A DNA stretch of 52,853 bases from Candidatus Heimdallarchaeota archaeon (GTDB lineage: Archaea; Asgardarchaeota; Wukongarchaeia; Wukongarchaeales; JBHIFL01), in NCBI GenBank assembly GCA_046761065.1, contig JBHIFL010000020.1:1-52853 (forward strand). The letters are read 5' to 3'. Shown here in pieces: positions 39,110 to 46,411 of the stretch. The notes below the pieces were generated by a model. It saw nothing but the letters and a program-made list of their open reading frames with translations. It had not been told where the DNA came from and ran no database searches. Numbering within the stretch: the stretch's first letter is position 1; each line of letters opens with the position of its first letter. A program made the translations under genes and the position numbers.

Positions 39110-40819
39110 GTGGTCTTAGAATTCTTGCGACCAGTAAATTTGGAAATGTTTGTGGGTCGAGACGAAATAATAAACACTTTCAGAGAAACCATGCGAAATT
39201 ATAAGAAGAACTCCGTAGAGAAGAAGGGATGGGTTATTGTTGGCGACCCTGGGAGTGGAAGAACTTCAATGATAAATATCCTGGAACGAATCGTAAGAAC
39301 AGAAGGGTTAACTCCCATAAAATGGTCTGTCCCACTGGATTATGAGATGTGGGAGATCCCCAAATGGATTCTTGAAAGTCTAAAAGACCGTTTACCAATA
39401 AAAAAGAAAAAGATTTTTGAAAAGATCCCTTTCGACTATTTGACAAACCTAACTCCCGAAGATTCGTCATACCCAACAAAAATAAACACCATATGTGAGA
39501 AATTTGCCCTAATCAATGAAGAACTGGAAACGAAGCGAGAATACATCGTATTCCTGTTTGATGATGTTGAGCGCTTTTTCCTATTGGGTCAAGATAATCT
39601 ATTCTTCTTTATTCTAGATATTCTGACCAATTTTTCTGAAAGGGACTTTAAAACCTTCTTTGTTTTTTCCCTCACCACAGAATTTTGGCAGCAAATCCAA
39701 AATGATCTTAAAGATATTTCCATTATCATAGAACTTGACCGTCTAGATCTTAAGGAAGCAGAAATCCTTGTACAAAGGCGCGAGGACCCAACCTATCGTA
39801 TAGACCCTCAAGTGGTAAGGGAAATAACAAAACAGACAGATAGATCACCATTCTCCTTGGTTTATGCATTGACACTGCTTAAAGCAATGAAAGGAGAAGA
39901 TGAAGGTGAAATTAGTATTAAAATATGGGATCGAATTAGACCTCAATTGAGAGAAATCAATCTTAATGTATTAGGGATCAATGAAAGCGAATCCAATATA
40001 TTATCCTTATTTGAAGGGAGAACAGAGAATATTCTAAGAAAAAAAGAAATTGAAAGATTAATAGGCATTGAACGTCCCAAATTGAATTCCCTTTTGCGAG
40101 AAATGGAGGAGAAAGGGCTAATAGTCCAAGGGAAAAATTTTATCCAAATAGCCTCCAATGCTTTACATCAACTATTAAGGCAAAAACTGTTAACAAGAAA
40201 TATTTTAGCTATAATACATGCTTTATTCGATCAAGTGGAATTTGAACTAAATAACGAACTGAAACCGTCAATTCAGCTTATAGAACGAATTGAAATCCTC
40301 TCAAAATCCTTGGAAGAAGCAGAAACTTCGAGAAAATACTTATATGATCTCGGTTCACGAGCTGAACAACTTGCTAAACATGCGTTTTCTTTGGAATTCT
40401 GGTATGAAACTTATGCGATTGCTAGATTAGCTGTAAAATTCTTTTCAGATTTGGCTCATGATCCTGAACGAGCTGCAATTACAGCAGAAGATATGGGAAA
40501 AATCTTTTTTGATCAATCAAGAATGAAGAGTAGTCTATTACACTATGCTATCAAACTTTATACTTATGCCACTTATATGTATAAGAATGCGAAAATTGAC
40601 TGGAAAGTAAAAAGTAATGCCAGAGAAGCAGCTATTTTGCATGAACAACTTGGAGATTATTATAAAGAAAATAATATGTTTGGTATAGCTAGATCACAAT
40701 ATTATGAGGCAGCTCAACACTTTGAACTAGCTGAAGAGTCAAAAAAGCGAGAATCTGTTATCCAAAAGGGAAAAAATGTCTCAATGTCTCCTGAGCTTTC
40801 CATGGTATTTGAAAAGTAA
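39110..40819 (+). CDS. Orc1/STAND-like AAA+ protein with winged helix and C-terminal TPR/SNAP-like solenoid
   Basis: FVGRDE, Walker A GDPGSGRT (K to R), Walker B FLFDDVE, wHTH LLREMEEKGLI, helical repeats AAILHEQLGDYY...YYEAAQHF. Confidence 0.75.
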   Translation: MVLEFLRPVNLEMFVGRDEIINTFRETMRNYKKNSVEKKGWVIVGDPGSGRTSMINILERIVRTEGLTPIKWSVPLDYEMWEIPKWILESLKDRLPIKKKKIFEKIPFDYLTNLTPEDSSYPTKINTICEKFALINEELETKREYIVFLFDDVERFFLLGQDNLFFFILDILTNFSERDFKTFFVFSLTTEFWQQIQNDLKDISIIIELDRLDLKEAEILVQRREDPTYRIDPQVVREITKQTDRSPFSLVYALTLLKAMKGEDEGEISIKIWDRIRPQLREINLNVLGINESESNILSLFEGRTENILRKKEIERLIGIERPKLNSLLREMEEKGLIVQGKNFIQIASNALHQLLRQKLLTRNILAIIHALFDQVEFELNNELKPSIQLIERIEILSKSLEEAETSRKYLYDLGSRAEQLAKHAFSLEFWYETYAIARLAVKFFSDLAHDPERAAITAEDMGKIFFDQSRMKSSLLHYAIKLYTYATYMYKNAKIDWKVKSNAREAAILHEQLGDYYKENNMFGIARSQYYEAAQHFELAEESKKRESVIQKGKNVSMSPELSMVFEK

Positions 40820-40841
40820 AAAACAATTGAAAGGGACCAAA

Positions 40842-42053
40842 ATGTCGTTAAACCACAAAAAAATTAGTGAAATCGCAAACAAACTCCAAACAGAAAAGGA
40901 ATTTCTTGAAAAAGAGAAAAATGAAATAAAAACTGAGCTTAAGAACCTTAAGGACATACAAAAGACTATTCAGAATTCTTTTTCTCAAGGAATAGAAACA
41001 ATAGAAGCAGATACCATCAATATTTTGGAAAACATGAAAACATCCTTAATTCAATTCTCAAATAAACTAGCAAACGATCAAATAACCTTTATTAAAGACT
41101 TTAATACCCGTACATTGGAACAATTCGGACAAAAAGCAGATCAGATGAAAGAAAAGAGTCGTAATCAGATATTTAATCTTTCTAAGACGCTTCTATCAAC
41201 TGGAAATCAAATTGAGAGAAAATTAGAAACAATAGTTAAAAACCAGTTAAAAACTGTGAAAGGAGAAGCTGATCTGTTTATTGACAAATTGGATGAACAA
41301 ACACAAATCCAGCAAGAGAATATCACTGAGTTTGCAGACCAACTTAAGGAGAAGTTTCAACAAGAATTGATAAACGGTATTAATAACTCAATTACAAGTT
41401 TTGTGGGATTTCAAGATCAGTTCTCCGTAATTATCATGGATGCGATATCTCGCTTGAAAGCTGCAATGGGAGAGTTGCAGAACCAACTTGATACTCTAAT
41501 TTTGTCCGAGCTGAAAAGGATCGAAACTCTGACAACAACCTATGAAGATCAATTTCTTCAAACTATAAAGAAGACGTTGGATCAGCATGAAAACGAGATG
41601 GCATCTTTAAAAGAAAGCTTCAGACATGCCATAGGCGAGCATCAACGAGCTCTGGAAAATAGACTGTCAGTGTTGACGAATGAAACAGTAGCTAATACTA
41701 AAGACACCATAGAAGCGGCGCAGAACAACCTTGTTCAAACAAATAACATGGAGATTGAAGCAATCGATCAAATGATAAAGGAAATTGAAGCTGTTATTTC
41801 TCAATATGTAGAAAAAGGCGTTGAAACGATTAATCAACAGATAAAAAATGATAAACCACTCCTAGAAACATTCACGGAAAATCGAGCTGTCTTTGCCAAC
41901 CAAGTTGAAGAAATAAAGAAAGGTATTGACATCAAAGAACTAACTACAGGAATAAGTGAAGGAATGCAAATGAGAGAACGCCGAATTAAGAATATGGAAA
42001 ATATCCTAAAAGATCTAGAGAAGATCCTAAAAGAATTGAAAAGGGGAGTTTGA
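40842..42053 (+). CDS. All-coiled-coil protein (~403 aa; probable start ATG 40842)
   Basis: Nearly proline-free amphipathic helix with apparent 11-residue periodicity; AAGGGA SD before 40842; stop overlaps the next start (TTGA). Confidence 0.75.
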   Translation: MSLNHKKISEIANKLQTEKEFLEKEKNEIKTELKNLKDIQKTIQNSFSQGIETIEADTINILENMKTSLIQFSNKLANDQITFIKDFNTRTLEQFGQKADQMKEKSRNQIFNLSKTLLSTGNQIERKLETIVKNQLKTVKGEADLFIDKLDEQTQIQQENITEFADQLKEKFQQELINGINNSITSFVGFQDQFSVIIMDAISRLKAAMGELQNQLDTLILSELKRIETLTTTYEDQFLQTIKKTLDQHENEMASLKESFRHAIGEHQRALENRLSVLTNETVANTKDTIEAAQNNLVQTNNMEIEAIDQMIKEIEAVISQYVEKGVETINQQIKNDKPLLETFTENRAVFANQVEEIKKGIDIKELTTGISEGMQMRERRIKNMENILKDLEKILKELKRGV

Positions 42054-45000
42054 ATACCATGCCTAAGAATAACTTGGATTTTAATGTGAAGGTTCTCTCT
42101 CAACTGGGATTGAGTGAAGAAGAGGCTGTTGCCTACTCAATCCTTGTAGGAACCGGATCACGGACAGCAGAAGAAGCTGCCCTATATTCTGGACGTCCAG
42201 CAAGAGAGATAAAAGAATCATTAGCAAAACTTGCGGAAAAGGGTTTTGCTAGACTGATTCCTGGTGTCCTCGATATTTATGTAGCATTGAACCCACAAAT
42301 TACTATTACAGCAAAAGCTGAAGATCAACTCCAAACTGAACTTAATAAAACAATCTCTGAAATAAATGATATATGGAAATACAGCGCAGATCAGCTCAGA
42401 GAAACAACAGCGAATTTTAAAACTGCTACTAAAGAACTTGCTGATAACAAAATTTCAGTAATGAAAGAAGCTTCTAAAAACTTTAGTAGTACAATAAAAC
42501 AAACAGTTCAAGAGCTAGAGGGAAACTTAAAGGAACTATCTGAAAAATATAGTGCAACTATATCAAAATTTACTACAGAAGACTATAATTCCCTGGAAAC
42601 TTCCCTTCAGACTTTGAAAACCACTTTATCTACTGAAATACAAAATCAGATTTCCGATTTAGAAGATTCTATAGCAGAACTAAACCAAAAAACTGCTGAA
42701 CTCATAGATAGTTCCTCGAAAATTCTCCGAGACCAGACAGATAATGTAATGGAAAGATTTGGTGCTATAATTACAGAAATCAAAGATAAAAATAGTAATT
42801 CAATCAAGGAATTCGAAGATAAGCTTATTACAACCACTGAAAACTTGGAAGCCCAAATCGAAGCACAACGAGAAAATTTATCCGAATCTGTGAAAAAAGT
42901 AGGGCATAATATAATTGACAACTTTAAAAAGAACCTTTCGACATTACATAGCACTTTCTCAAAGTCAATTACTGAGCTTATTACCCAAATCAACGCAAAT
43001 ATAGATTCTAGCCTGTCAAAAACCGCTGCAAGTCTTGATTTAAAAGTTGATCAACACGCAGAAAAAACTACAGAGAACAGGAACCTCCTAACAAATGCTC
43101 AGGATATCCTATCAACTGCTTTTCAAAACGTTATAGTTGAGATTGAAAAAAGTGTTCAATACAATGAATCCCTAGAAACAGCTCTTACCAAGTTTCAAGA
43201 AAAAACCCAATCTGTACTAAAGGATCTAACAAGCTTAGAGACTAACCTAACAAAGAAGACAAAAGCTCTTTCTGATAATACGATCTTAACGTTACGCGAA
43301 GGAATCAAAGAAGGAATTGATAGCATTCAAAAGGGCCTAAAAAGCATTCAGATGAATCTCACTCAATTTATAGAGAGTTCAGTAGCAGCATTAAAAGAAT
43401 CGAATAAGACATTCACAGATAAGACAACAACATTAATTGAATCAAAACAGGAGGACTTCCTATCAACACTTGATAATATCACAGAAGCTACAAAGAAACA
43501 ATTAAGTACCCAAACAAACGAAGCACAAAACAACATTTTAACAAAGAAAGAGATAGTTATCAACGAACTAACCAAACAAATTCAAGAAGCCAATGAAAAA
43601 TTTAACAAACAAATCAATAGAATGCGAAATGACACTGAAACCCTTCTTGAAAAATTTAACGAACAGGTTAAAACAAGAGTAAACACTACCAAGAGCAGTC
43701 TTCTGGATCAAGTCAAAGCAAATAATACACAGATAGAAGAAGAAATAGACGCCCAAATTGGCCAAATAAAATCCAATAAAACCGAGATAAATACTAAGTT
43801 AGATAATTTACTCAAGGAGATGACGGAGAAATTCACAAAACTTCGCACAAATACAATAGAAAAAACCAAAAACATTACCCAAGAAAGCATGAAACAGTTG
43901 AAGACGTATCTTTCAACCCTATCTGAAAGCTTTGATAAGACATTAAGTACCTTTTCTAAGAAAACTTCACAAGAATCGGAAGCAATACGAAAAGAGATCC
44001 CTCCAGCTCTTGATCGACTAGTGACAGATCATAAAAACAGAATCCAGACATTTGACCTCACCTTTTCAGAGACCCTTATGCAATTGATTGAGATTGTTAG
44101 TGAGATCTATGAGAAGCTTCAGGATAAAAAAACCCGGAAAAAGTTACATGAGGTATACCTGCCAAAACTAGAGGTAATGAAAACTAACTTAGCAGATATT
44201 CAAGAGAAACTTCGAACCCTCATGGAAACCCATATCACATCCTTTGAAACGGAGAGTTCGAAATTCATAGACCAAATTGAAAGATCCTTGACACTCCAGA
44301 TACGTAACATCCAAGATTTAGTAGAACAGAGTAAAGAAAAAATAGAAACATCTCGAAATGAAACCGGAACCATGGTGGAGGGTGGACTAACAGAAGCAAC
44401 GAACCTTCTTCTCAATAGTCTTCAGCAGACAACGGACCAAAATCTTCAAACTGGTGAGAGCAGCATAAAGCAAGTGAATAAAGCATTTCAAAATTGCATA
44501 AACACTCAAACTGCTCTACTGCAATCCTTCCGCGAAACTTTTACGTCCCTTGAGACTACCATCTCTACTGCTATTAAAGAAATAACAACTGAAACAAACA
44601 AGGATTTAGCCAATCTAAATAAGGAAATTCTAAAAAAGCAATCAAGACAACTTGATCAAACTTTAAAGGATACTGAAAAAGCAATAGAAGCAACACGAGA
44701 CCAAGTCCTAAACTCTACAGAAAATATCTCCCAGACTTCTATTGAAATAGATAAGAACTTACTAGCTCAGATGCTAGAACTTATAGATTCCCAGCGTGTA
44801 AGTGTTAGTGATGCATTCGAGGATCTACGTACAAACATTTCTGAAGGTCAAGAAAAGAGAAATACCGAATTAGAAACAAACCTTGAAAATATATCCATAA
44901 CTCAAAAAAAAGGCATAGAAGAGATTATTAAATCTGCTACAAATTCTATGAACAATATTATTGATGAAACAATAACCCAAATATCAGATTTAGGTAAAAA

Positions 45001-46411
45001 ACTCACTCGTACAAGCAATGATGAAATCGAACGAACTCTTCGAAATTCATCAAAACTCTATGGAGAGACGACTGATGCTATAACACAAGGACTTTCAAAA
45101 CAGATTAATTCCTTTAACCAAGAAATTATACCTTCTATTGAAAGCACGAAAGAAACCTTTACATCAGAACTTGTCTCCTCCCTCGAAAATGTAGAAAACA
45201 TACTGTTGAAATCTCAAAAAGAAATCAAAACGTCTGCTGACAATTTAAAAGAATTATTAAATGAACTTCCCGTAATAACCGAATCTATCAAGAAAGATCG
45301 AGAAAAAATGGATAACGAAGTCAAGTTCATCATCGAAAATACAGTTTCTGCGCTTCGAAACGAAGTAATTTCTAATGAAAATAAAACTCATGAGATTATC
45401 AGTAAAAGAACAGAAGAAGCTAAAGCAACTGTTATACAGCTGCAAAAAGAAGAACTTCCTCAAGTCTTGAGTACTACACTCCAAGAAAACCTTGATCAAG
45501 CAATAAAAACTATCAACAACGTAAAGGAAGAAGTTCACAAAAAGATTGAGAGTGAAACCAAGAATCTGAGAACTCAAAGTGAAAAAATAACTGCTATTCC
45601 AATTCGAAATATCCAAACAAAGGTAATGGATTTCCAAAAATCACTTGAAGACGAACTTGGTTCCCACTCTTTAACCATCAATAAACACTTTTTTAACCAT
45701 GCTGAGAAGTTAAGAGACTCTTTAAAAACACACCGTGCCCAAACAAAAGAAATGCTTGACTCTTCAGAGGCTATCATTAATCAAACAACCTTAAAATATG
45801 CTAAAGAGGTTGAAAAAAATCTTTTGGAGATTGCTACAGGAGTAACTAGCACAGTTGACAAAATCGAGAATGATGTGACCAAAAAATTATCAGGTCAACT
45901 ACAAGGAATCCCAGCACGAATACACACAGCCCTTAAGGATACAGGAGCCACGATGACTTTCTTAAAGCAGGTACATGACTTTGCCCTAAAAACAAAACCA
46001 CTTGCAATCGAACAAACATATCCTATATTTGGAAAAGAAGCTGTTCTCAATAGCATCCTCAGTTGTTTGAGCCGAGTCAAAAGTACGATCAACTTAGTTG
46101 TACCCAACCTTGAAGATATCCCACTTAATGTCCTAGAAACTGTTCCTAGTACTAGACGAATCGAATTGATCACTAGTGAATCTTCAATCACCCCAGAATA
46201 CATTTCTGAACTCACAAATAAGCTACCCAATGTTGTTGTACGAAAAACACCCGAAATAGATGCTTATATAGCCTTCAGAGACGCCGAAGAAGTTATTATT
46301 GGAACGGGAGAAGGAAACAGTCTTGCCTCAATTGCAACAACCCAAGAGGAATTTGTCCGCTTGTTGGGCGAATTACAATCCAGATTTAGATCTCAAAGCA
46401 GACCTGTTTAG
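42050..46411 (+). CDS. Giant TrmB-type wHTH, ~1230-aa coiled coil, TrmB effector/PLD-like domain protein
   Basis: N-terminus LSQLGLSEEEAVAYSIL...LAKLAEKGF...YVALNP; C-terminus IFGKEAV...RVKSTINLVVP...FRDAEEVIIG without HKD; helical middle. Confidence 0.8.
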   Translation: MNTMPKNNLDFNVKVLSQLGLSEEEAVAYSILVGTGSRTAEEAALYSGRPAREIKESLAKLAEKGFARLIPGVLDIYVALNPQITITAKAEDQLQTELNKTISEINDIWKYSADQLRETTANFKTATKELADNKISVMKEASKNFSSTIKQTVQELEGNLKELSEKYSATISKFTTEDYNSLETSLQTLKTTLSTEIQNQISDLEDSIAELNQKTAELIDSSSKILRDQTDNVMERFGAIITEIKDKNSNSIKEFEDKLITTTENLEAQIEAQRENLSESVKKVGHNIIDNFKKNLSTLHSTFSKSITELITQINANIDSSLSKTAASLDLKVDQHAEKTTENRNLLTNAQDILSTAFQNVIVEIEKSVQYNESLETALTKFQEKTQSVLKDLTSLETNLTKKTKALSDNTILTLREGIKEGIDSIQKGLKSIQMNLTQFIESSVAALKESNKTFTDKTTTLIESKQEDFLSTLDNITEATKKQLSTQTNEAQNNILTKKEIVINELTKQIQEANEKFNKQINRMRNDTETLLEKFNEQVKTRVNTTKSSLLDQVKANNTQIEEEIDAQIGQIKSNKTEINTKLDNLLKEMTEKFTKLRTNTIEKTKNITQESMKQLKTYLSTLSESFDKTLSTFSKKTSQESEAIRKEIPPALDRLVTDHKNRIQTFDLTFSETLMQLIEIVSEIYEKLQDKKTRKKLHEVYLPKLEVMKTNLADIQEKLRTLMETHITSFETESSKFIDQIERSLTLQIRNIQDLVEQSKEKIETSRNETGTMVEGGLTEATNLLLNSLQQTTDQNLQTGESSIKQVNKAFQNCINTQTALLQSFRETFTSLETTISTAIKEITTETNKDLANLNKEILKKQSRQLDQTLKDTEKAIEATRDQVLNSTENISQTSIEIDKNLLAQMLELIDSQRVSVSDAFEDLRTNISEGQEKRNTELETNLENISITQKKGIEEIIKSATNSMNNIIDETITQISDLGKKLTRTSNDEIERTLRNSSKLYGETTDAITQGLSKQINSFNQEIIPSIESTKETFTSELVSSLENVENILLKSQKEIKTSADNLKELLNELPVITESIKKDREKMDNEVKFIIENTVSALRNEVISNENKTHEIISKRTEEAKATVIQLQKEELPQVLSTTLQENLDQAIKTINNVKEEVHKKIESETKNLRTQSEKITAIPIRNIQTKVMDFQKSLEDELGSHSLTINKHFFNHAEKLRDSLKTHRAQTKEMLDSSEAIINQTTLKYAKEVEKNLLEIATGVTSTVDKIENDVTKKLSGQLQGIPARIHTALKDTGATMTFLKQVHDFALKTKPLAIEQTYPIFGKEAVLNSILSCLSRVKSTINLVVPNLEDIPLNVLETVPSTRRIELITSESSITPEYISELTNKLPNVVVRKTPEIDAYIAFRDAEEVIIGTGEGNSLASIATTQEEFVRLLGELQSRFRSQSRPV

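Follow-up and report, generated by a model that had tools for sequence, protein, structure and literature searches.

A giant TrmBL2-like protein of an Asgard archaeon with a probable equal-armed antiparallel hendecad rod

The giant gene and the terminal domains of its product

The window (the whole analyzed stretch of 52,853 nucleotides) belongs to contig JBHIFL010000020.1 of a Candidatus Heimdallarchaeota archaeon and carries a gene for a giant protein in which two domains of the TrmB family flank a predicted coiled-coil rod of about 1,220 residues (Table 1). The frame is the sole long one at its position (42050..46411, forward strand), with 1453 stop-free codons, and the gene closes a compact cassette of three genes. 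It is real and conserved; an orthologue of equal length and 82% identity is located in an identical gene order (NTPase, helix protein, giant, thrC, MutL, and MutS). The TTG codon at 42050 overlaps the stop codon of the upstream gene. Since the ATG codon at 42059, 5 nucleotides past this stop, is preceded by GGGGAG and is the start of the database copy of the protein, which has 1450 residues, ATG 42059 is the likely start and 1450 residues the likely size of the product. Neither a signal peptide nor a transmembrane segment was found in the protein sequence. A scan for sigma-70 promoters and terminators gave results no better than those obtained with shuffled sequences, the sigma-70 model being unsuited to an archaeon.

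Table 1. Features of the giant gene, of its cassette, and of paralogs in the same genome (positions in the window unless a contig is named)
Feature	Position	Strand	Basis or remark
AAA_16/STAND-like NTPase, 569 residues, internal MarR/TrmB-like helix-turn-helix, helical-repeat tail	39110..40819	+	First cassette gene
Hendecad helix protein, 425 residues (or shorter), unbroken register	40776..42053	+	Upstream operon partner, second cassette gene
Giant TrmBL2-like rod protein gene	42050..46411	+	1453 residues from TTG 42050; stop 46409-46411
TrmB-type winged helix-turn-helix, residues 16-82	42095..42295	+	Pfam PF01978, 42.9 bits, cut-off 25.6
N-arm, residues 86-692; first ~35 residues form a conserved neck (86-120)	42305..44125	+	Periodicity, alignment
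N-arm register discontinuity, residues ~340-400, shift about +135 to +150 degrees	43067..43249	+	265 residues from head
Conserved central (apex) module, residues 641-760, with conserved I-P kink (650-652)	43970..44329	+	Island in alignment A3
Basic break QDKKTRKKLHEVYLPK, residues 691-706; predicted turn K693-R696, shift about -137 degrees	44120..44167	+	Sequence, register, AlphaFold2
C-arm, residues 697-1309; prolines 705, 1028, 1074, 1137, 1184, and 1288	44138..45976	+	Periodicity
C-arm register discontinuities, residues ~1050-1140	45197..45469	+	247 and 191 residues from head
C-terminal PLD-like domain, TrmB/TrmBL2 type, residues 1310-1453	45977..46408	+	AlphaFold2, Foldseek, profile against PDB, PF11495 in relatives
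1210-residue paralog	C11:59322-62954	+	Same wHTH and C-domain; rod centre without prolines or register break
846-residue paralog	C68:16622-19162	+	Same wHTH and C-domain; rod centre without prolines or register break
769-residue paralog	C36:25952-28261	-	Same wHTH and C-domain; prolines and register break at rod centre

A preliminary description of this DNA, made from the letters alone, had proposed a TrmB protein split by a very long linker. The N-terminal winged helix-turn-helix (wHTH) is a Pfam match well above the cut-off, and the helix that follows begins at residue ~86, directly after the wHTH, as is the case for the pairing helix of the TrmB family. An ordinary TrmB-like paralog of 278 residues from the same genome aligns to residues 4-106 of the giant protein.

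Identification of the C-terminal domain was based on relatives and on fold. The last 164 residues, used as a query, retrieved 111 cluster representatives among 1.84 billion, and nearly all full-length relatives, which range from ~250 to 1812 residues, have the match at their C-terminus or close to it. The profile of the resulting alignment of 112 C-domains (A1) had TrmB as its two best sequence matches in the PDB (3qph, residues 110-201, and 2f5t); these matches were weak (E ~0.08) but correctly placed, directly after the TrmB linker helix. PF11495 (Regulator_TrmB) was matched individually by 31 of the 112 aligned relatives (best 7.5e-8), and the C-domain of the giant protein, taken alone, had no Pfam match of its own, PF11495 included. 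An AlphaFold2 model of residues 1310-1453 (pLDDT 93.5, pTM 0.84) returned the TrmBL2 structures 5bpd and 5box as top Foldseek matches (E 1e-9, TMq 0.76). It also matched TrmB 2f5t (TMq 0.77, root mean square deviation 2.0), the E values of the TrmBL2 and TrmB matches ranging from 1e-9 to 1e-7. PLD-fold nucleases were also among the best structural matches.

These data support the assignment of both termini to TrmB-family domains, by Pfam for the wHTH and by fold and PF11495-matching relatives for the C-domain; unrelated termini, which would have spoken against a split TrmB, were not what PF01978, 5bpd, and 2f5t revealed. The C-terminal part, however, is the PLD-like subdomain only and not the whole effector domain. 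Since the protein stops right after this subdomain, 144 residues from its start, it lacks the sugar-binding barrel found in TrmB proper. In comparison to TrmB of Pyrococcus furiosus and Thermococcus litoralis (3qph, 2f5t), the giant protein thus has a wHTH of the same family and a C-domain equivalent to the first effector-binding subdomain, but no barrel, and its linker is ~35 times longer than the ~35 residues of a TrmB-type linker.

The closest counterpart is TrmBL2 (TK0471 / PF0496; 5bpd, 5box, 5bpi, 5bqt), a nucleoid protein of the Thermococcales, which also lacks the sugar-binding subdomain. TrmBL2 consists of a wHTH, an amphipathic pairing helix, and a domain at its C-terminus (PMC4877046), and the succession of domains in the giant protein matches this order. 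The two proteins differ by size (264 residues for TrmBL2), by the helix, which in TrmBL2 is a single short dimerisation helix and in the giant protein a hendecad of ~1,220 residues whose centre holds a conserved turn module, and by the operon, as conserved linkage to genes for an NTPase and a helix protein is a feature of the giant gene and not of TrmBL2. Identity between the C-domains is only 12-14%. TrmBL2 is an abundant, tetrameric protein that coats double-stranded DNA non-specifically (PMC4877046), and it is described as coating and stiffening DNA and stalling SMC (PMC4877046; PMC11840125). By analogy with TrmBL2, DNA binding by the wHTH of the giant protein is putative.

The rod and its centre

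The long linker of the preliminary description was recovered as a helical rod spanning residues 86-1309 (midpoint 697.5), between the wHTH and the C-terminal domain. It is mainly composed of T, E, K, L, I, S, N, and Q, with 27.5% bulky hydrophobic residues, and contains eight prolines, none of them between residues 83 and 650 (568 residues). The Fourier spectrum of hydrophobicity displayed a single peak at 3.68 residues (11/3) with a power of 7.9, as compared to maxima averaging 1.3, and never above 2.1, for 100 shuffles of the rod. There was no heptad signal (power of 0.06 at 3.5 residues), no separate 22-residue signal was found by Fourier analysis (power of 0.14), and the best autocorrelation lags were 11, 22, and 33. 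In coherent stretches, each set of 11 positions comprises three that are mostly hydrophobic and one or two that are hydrophobic in part; their 3-4-4 spacing corresponds to the a-d(e)-h arrangement seen in hendecad coiled coils. The register is coherent in four segments (residues ~110-340, 400-680, 720-1040, and 1160-1300) and jumps at residues ~350-390, ~697, and ~1050-1140 (~1063/1119). An apolipoprotein-like periodicity of both 11 and 22 residues had been claimed for this helix. The 11-residue component is clearly present whereas the 22-residue component and the associated proline punctuation are not.

The rod might alternatively be an amphipathic helix like those of apolipoproteins, perilipins, or LEA proteins, binding lipids or surfaces without adopting a fixed rod shape, the TrmB head acting as a tether to DNA. 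Amphipathic repeats of 11 residues are typical of lipid-surface binders, and the Pfam Apolipoprotein profile (PF01442) matches the giant protein at 104.5 bits, above the cut-off of 90. Since there is neither a 22-residue signal nor proline punctuation, this match reflects the 11-residue periodicity only, a property that the giant protein has in common with exchangeable apolipoproteins and with ZorA tails (NF033914, PADLOC ZorA3). Unlike apolipoproteins, it has no secretion signal and no broad lipid-binding face: the hydrophobic stripe is narrow, with 3-4 of each 11 positions. The long proline-free stretch, the lack of transmembrane segments, and the symmetry of the arms described below are also at odds with lipid binding, which we regard as highly improbable.

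Matches to the Apolipoprotein, ApoLp-III, ATG17-like, GrpE, ZorA, LmuB, and SpiroCoCo profiles were all rejected as driven by periodicity and composition. For ZorA (Zorya defence), the match involved residues 355-1166 of the rod and the tail region of the profiles only (positions ~225-760), with scores of 43 bits (NCBIfam) and 73.8 bits (PADLOC) that are far under the cut-offs (43 versus 190 bits). No MotA/ExbB-type membrane domain, as found in ZorA, is present ahead of the rod. The hendecad statistics common to the ZorA tail and to these rods could mislead automatic annotation of defence systems.

The preliminary description had located a basic, proline-containing interruption at the midpoint of the linker. 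The sequence QDKKTRKKLHEVYLPK is found exactly at residues 691-706 and does coincide with a break of the register, although this break is one of three or four, the others being at ~350 and ~1063/1119. Full-length alignment of the subfamily (A3) revealed three islands of conservation, comprising the head and neck (residues 21-120), the central module (641-760), and the C-neck with the C-terminal domain (1281-1453). In the central module, the conserved I-P kink precedes a basic loop whose length varies. This tip loop contains 27% of K and R, versus 13% in the rod, and reads basic-basic-x-hydrophobic-Gly-Lys in most relatives. Among 20 relatives with this apex module, an I/V-P motif is located 41-43 residues ahead of the apex loop in most cases, and a proline is located exactly 126 residues before the start of the C-domain (residue 1184 in the giant protein) in about half of them. 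The proline and the motif are fixed landmarks on otherwise fast-evolving arms.

Structure prediction was in agreement with a turn at this position. AlphaFold2, run on residues 520-880 with 14 aligned relatives (pLDDT 82.5, pTM 0.41), folded the chain into a hairpin consisting of a helix (model residues 2-173), a four-residue break (K693-R696), and a second helix (178-360). The topology of this model was read from its structural matches, the scores of which indicate topology only. The best whole-length match was the cytoplasmic hairpin of chemoreceptors (MCP; 2ch7, 3zx6), the model aligning over 305 of 307 residues to 2ch7 with a Z score of 12. Two copies of this long helical hairpin form a four-helix bundle with a conserved partner-binding tip. 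The likeness is topological only, as there is no sequence relation and the giant protein is devoid of transmembrane segments, HAMP domain, and methylation sites. The model also aligned to both arms of Bacillus subtilis Smc (5nnv), of Smc5/6 (8i4x), and of Rad50 (7zr1), and the Rad50 hook (1l8d) aligned to model residues 129-224 with the break at its centre.

Arm symmetry and the path of the chain

Symmetric insertions and deletions in orthologs had been set beforehand as a test of a fold-back rod, and the outcome was positive. Arms were compared in 21 non-redundant relatives of 714-1812 residues having a significant match to the apex module. The module served as a homology landmark, so that there was no selection for a central position. 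The N-arm ranged from 237 to 795 residues and the C-arm from 260 to 806 residues, and the two lengths were correlated (r = 0.996, slope 0.96). The Thorarchaeota member P0068, with 714 residues, has arms of 237 and 260 residues. The difference (C minus N) was 19 ± 12 residues, versus a standard deviation of 122 residues for arm length, and no permutation of the arm lengths approached the observed match. In the giant protein, the arms have 609 and 616 residues.

The discontinuities of the rod are also mirrored. In relative P0015, register breaks are located 288 and 362 residues from the head on one arm and 293 and 365 residues on the other; further pairs are found at 324 versus 325 and 479 versus 480 residues, and the N-arm break of the giant protein at 265 residues is mirrored by the C-arm break at 247 residues. 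The median mismatch was 33 residues, versus 74 for random placement. In 66 non-redundant full-length members of the family, register breaks were over-represented between 0.48 and 0.52 of the rod length, with 19 of the 138 breaks, in 19 proteins with rods of 536-1599 residues (binomial p of 1.7e-5, with no correction for relatedness). Across the family, prolines accumulate at 0.44-0.52, and the outer pair of breaks is kept in relatives at ~0.22 and ~0.80. In a second subfamily, with rods of ~860 residues (P0060, P0036, P0048, and P0092), length differences correspond to single deletions around the rod midpoint (residue 508), which removed residues 443-556, 493-521, and 517-538 (114, 29, and 22 residues, respectively). 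Many smaller insertions or deletions in this subfamily are multiples of 11 residues. These rods apparently grow and shrink at their centre in whole hendecads.

Tandem duplication of a half-rod was considered as a possible origin of the midpoint boundary. Autocorrelation up to a lag of 300, as against ~600 for a half-rod, detected lags of 11, 22, and 33 only, and the midpoint also holds across a three-fold range of lengths.

Because the arms are equal and the breaks mirrored across relatives, we conclude that the arms of the rod very probably pair antiparallel. Parallel dimers, lone helices, and surface-bound amphipathic helices are all disfavored by this symmetry. A parallel, in-register dimer or oligomer, or a single stable helix, would place the wHTHs ~180 nm away from the PLD-like domains. 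Such an arrangement is familiar in that hendecad repeats are known from parallel bundles, many long hendecad stalks being of this type, that the rod matches the ZorA tail profiles on periodicity, and that wHTH proteins usually bind DNA as dimers. However, it offers no reason for the presence of a homologous module at the exact midpoint while the arms vary from 237 to 795 residues, and leaves the matching break distances and the concentration of insertions and deletions at the centre unexplained. We consider it very unlikely.

Antiparallel pairing may occur within one chain or between two. The preliminary description had proposed an antiparallel fold-back rod of roughly 90 nm. The antiparallel part of this proposal is well supported by the symmetry and by the AlphaFold2 model, but the symmetry fits an intermolecular antiparallel dimer equally well. 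With arms of 609 and 616 residues and ~0.148 nm per residue, a hairpin would be ~90 nm in length and a dimer ~181 nm. In the latter case, full rods of 1,220 residues would associate as an extended antiparallel dimer (~180 nm) with swapped domains, in effect the CC/CC' pairing known from canonical TrmB drawn out in length. Each end would hold the wHTH of one chain beside the PLD-like domain of the other, the whole acting as a long, two-headed DNA bridge or spacer. There is a precedent in the crystal dimer of P. furiosus TrmB, in which the linker helices pair antiparallel (F81/I91' and F84/L88'), an arrangement termed domain swapping by the authors (PMC4158304). Equal arms, mirrored breaks, and central insertions or deletions are likewise expected from the swapped dimer, which is also in keeping with sister subfamilies that have no turn-like central feature. 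A conserved module with a proline kink and a length-variable, mostly glycine-bearing basic loop would be unexpected in a continuous two-helix coil, and AlphaFold2 breaks the helix exactly at this module; the swapped dimer therefore appears unlikely. For the same reasons, namely the kinked conserved module, its variable and mostly glycine-containing loop, and the predicted break, we favor an intramolecular hairpin, with fair but not high confidence.

The chain might also fold at each of its register breaks (~350, ~697, and ~1063-1119) into a compact bundle of ~40-45 nm or, as a variant, the hairpin might bend at an elbow and bring its tip to the head. The lengths of the four coherent segments are similar (~230-330 residues), the pair of breaks at 265/247 residues from the head is conserved in relatives, and the arms of SMC and MukB fold at an elbow, 6h2x being among the structural matches of the model. 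The outer breaks are, however, phase shifts with few helix breakers, and the AlphaFold2 model covers the centre only. We hold such a bundle to be highly unlikely.

Several observations weigh against the hairpin. The midpoint break is neither the sole break nor always the strongest one, and 47 of the 66 family members have no detectable central break, several of them having proline-free rods. The tip loop of the giant protein itself does not contain the glycine seen in most relatives. In monomer runs, AlphaFold2 is inclined to turn any long amphipathic helix into a hairpin, the pTM of the centre model is only 0.41, and Z scores of 10-12 are ordinary for long helices. The relatives are phylogenetically non-independent, so that the symmetry statistics are overstated. 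A co-fold of residues 1-340 with residues 1075-1453 scored 0.08 (mark of 0.32), which counts neither for nor against contact. A central turn was sought and not found in break-free sister subfamilies (P0089, P0077, P0050, P0022, and others), which have proline-free rods of 600-1074 residues and may be built differently from the apex-bearing subfamily. For this reason, the hairpin claim is limited to the apex-bearing subfamily.

In its proposed form, the hairpin resembles SMC, Rad50, and MukB by the location of the N- and C-terminal parts at one end of a long coiled coil that is antiparallel and intramolecular, by equal arms with paired discontinuities, and by a specialized apex. Equal arms and paired discontinuities, as in SMC and Rad50, are found in the giant protein, in which the pairing itself is deduced from sequence. 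These proteins are a working analogue rather than a homologue, and the rod of the giant protein is hendecad and not heptad. As the preliminary description had stated, ABC ATPase motifs are absent. A motif search did not detect the Walker A motif (G....GK[ST]) or the ABC signature (SGG[QE]), and there were no SMC or AAA matches in Pfam and NCBIfam. Neither a CxxC zinc hook nor a hinge domain is present in the giant protein, which contains only two cysteines and has a helical module with a basic loop as its apex.

Cassette partners, family, and possible role

The NTPase, the helix protein, and the giant were found together in 16 of the 25 loci examined, in several families of the phylum, with sizes of 556-594 residues for the NTPase and 416-773 residues for the helix protein. 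The helix-turn-helix of the NTPase is located at residues ~286-347, and its P-loop (GDPGSGRT) contains an arginine in place of the usual lysine. The 425-residue helix protein has a period of 3.67 (power of 8.3) and prolines at residues 9 and 361 only. Since its register is unbroken and no central break is present, it is suggestive of one continuous helix, ~55-60 nm long, rather than of a hairpin. Iterated searches with this protein picked up the rods of the giants; it may be a rod-only relative of these proteins. The first four loci suggested that the length of the partner tracks that of the giant (425/1453, 503/1499, 717/1719, and 770/1812 residues). This idea was rejected, as a partner of ~770 residues accompanies giants of 1176 to 1827 residues. 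Assignment of the NTPase to a defence island was also considered and discarded, PADLOC giving weak wHTH-type matches only and no paralogs of the partners being present in the genome. In a Freyarchaeota relative (locus L014, 589-2708), two small GTPase genes of the Arf/Ras/Roc type are located directly upstream of the cassette, and one of the two GTPases has a longin-like N-terminus.

No paralogs of the NTPase and of the helix protein were found in the same genome, which encodes three shorter paralogs of the giant with both end domains (1210, 846, and 769 residues), none accompanied by the two partner genes. Both end domains were present in 70 recovered proteins, the rods of which all display a periodicity of 3.64-3.68. 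Across the phylum, the C-domain profile matched 265 of the 301 sampled genomes and 84 of the 90 high-quality genomes, most genomes having two to six matches in open frames of about 750-2092 residues. The named members all originate from Asgard metagenome-assembled genomes (Promethearchaeota, Lokiarchaeota, Heimdallarchaeota, Thorarchaeota, Freyarchaeota, and Sigynarchaeota). In databases, they are labeled "helix-turn-helix domain-containing" or "hypothetical" only, and literature searches on TrmB, SMC-like, hendecad, and Asgard chromatin themes did not retrieve any description of the architecture of the giant protein.

Taken as a whole, the explanation that we consider reasonably probable is that of a TrmBL2-type protein with an equal-armed antiparallel hendecad rod, used as a DNA-anchored scaffold. 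The linker helix of ~35 residues of such a protein would have grown into a hendecad (11/3) coiled coil of ~1,220 residues, in two equal arms joined by the central module of ~120 residues, the basic loop of which would turn the chain at K693-R696. The arms would pair antiparallel and in register, an arrangement that would place the wHTH and the PLD-like domain together at one end, where we propose that they may be reunited as one head. The conserved basic tip would be located ~90 nm from this head, and the paired discontinuity ~250-265 residues from the head is a possible elbow. Two hairpins may be joined as a four-helix bundle, bringing two wHTHs together. By analogy with TrmBL2, the protein may act as a DNA-anchored scaffold or tether; a DNA-anchored structural role, considered by itself, is about evenly balanced. 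The tip or the shaft might be engaged by the co-operonic helix protein and the STAND-like NTPase.

A more ambitious proposal is that the giant protein is the shaft of an Asgard-specific machine for chromatin positioning, with the TrmBL2-like head on DNA, the conserved basic-hydrophobic tip docking 90 nm away to a membrane or to the helix protein, and the NTPase switching the assembly. We consider this very improbable. Among prokaryotes, Asgard archaea are those most closely related to eukaryotes, and such a machine, if real, would be a prokaryotic tether from DNA to the cell periphery, akin to the chromatin-envelope or kinetochore-type linkers of eukaryotes.

If the hairpin reading holds, Asgard archaea carry ATPase-free, SMC-like fold-back rods of 35-120 nm with the head of a chromatin protein as anchor. 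Such rods, bound to DNA as spacers or tethers of a fixed length, would add a new type of architectural element to the nucleoid. The family offers a natural series for studying the symmetric growth of antiparallel coiled-coil arms. The operon-borne subfamily, with its switch-type NTPase and second long helix protein, is a candidate three-part machine that could be tested in cultured Asgard strains.

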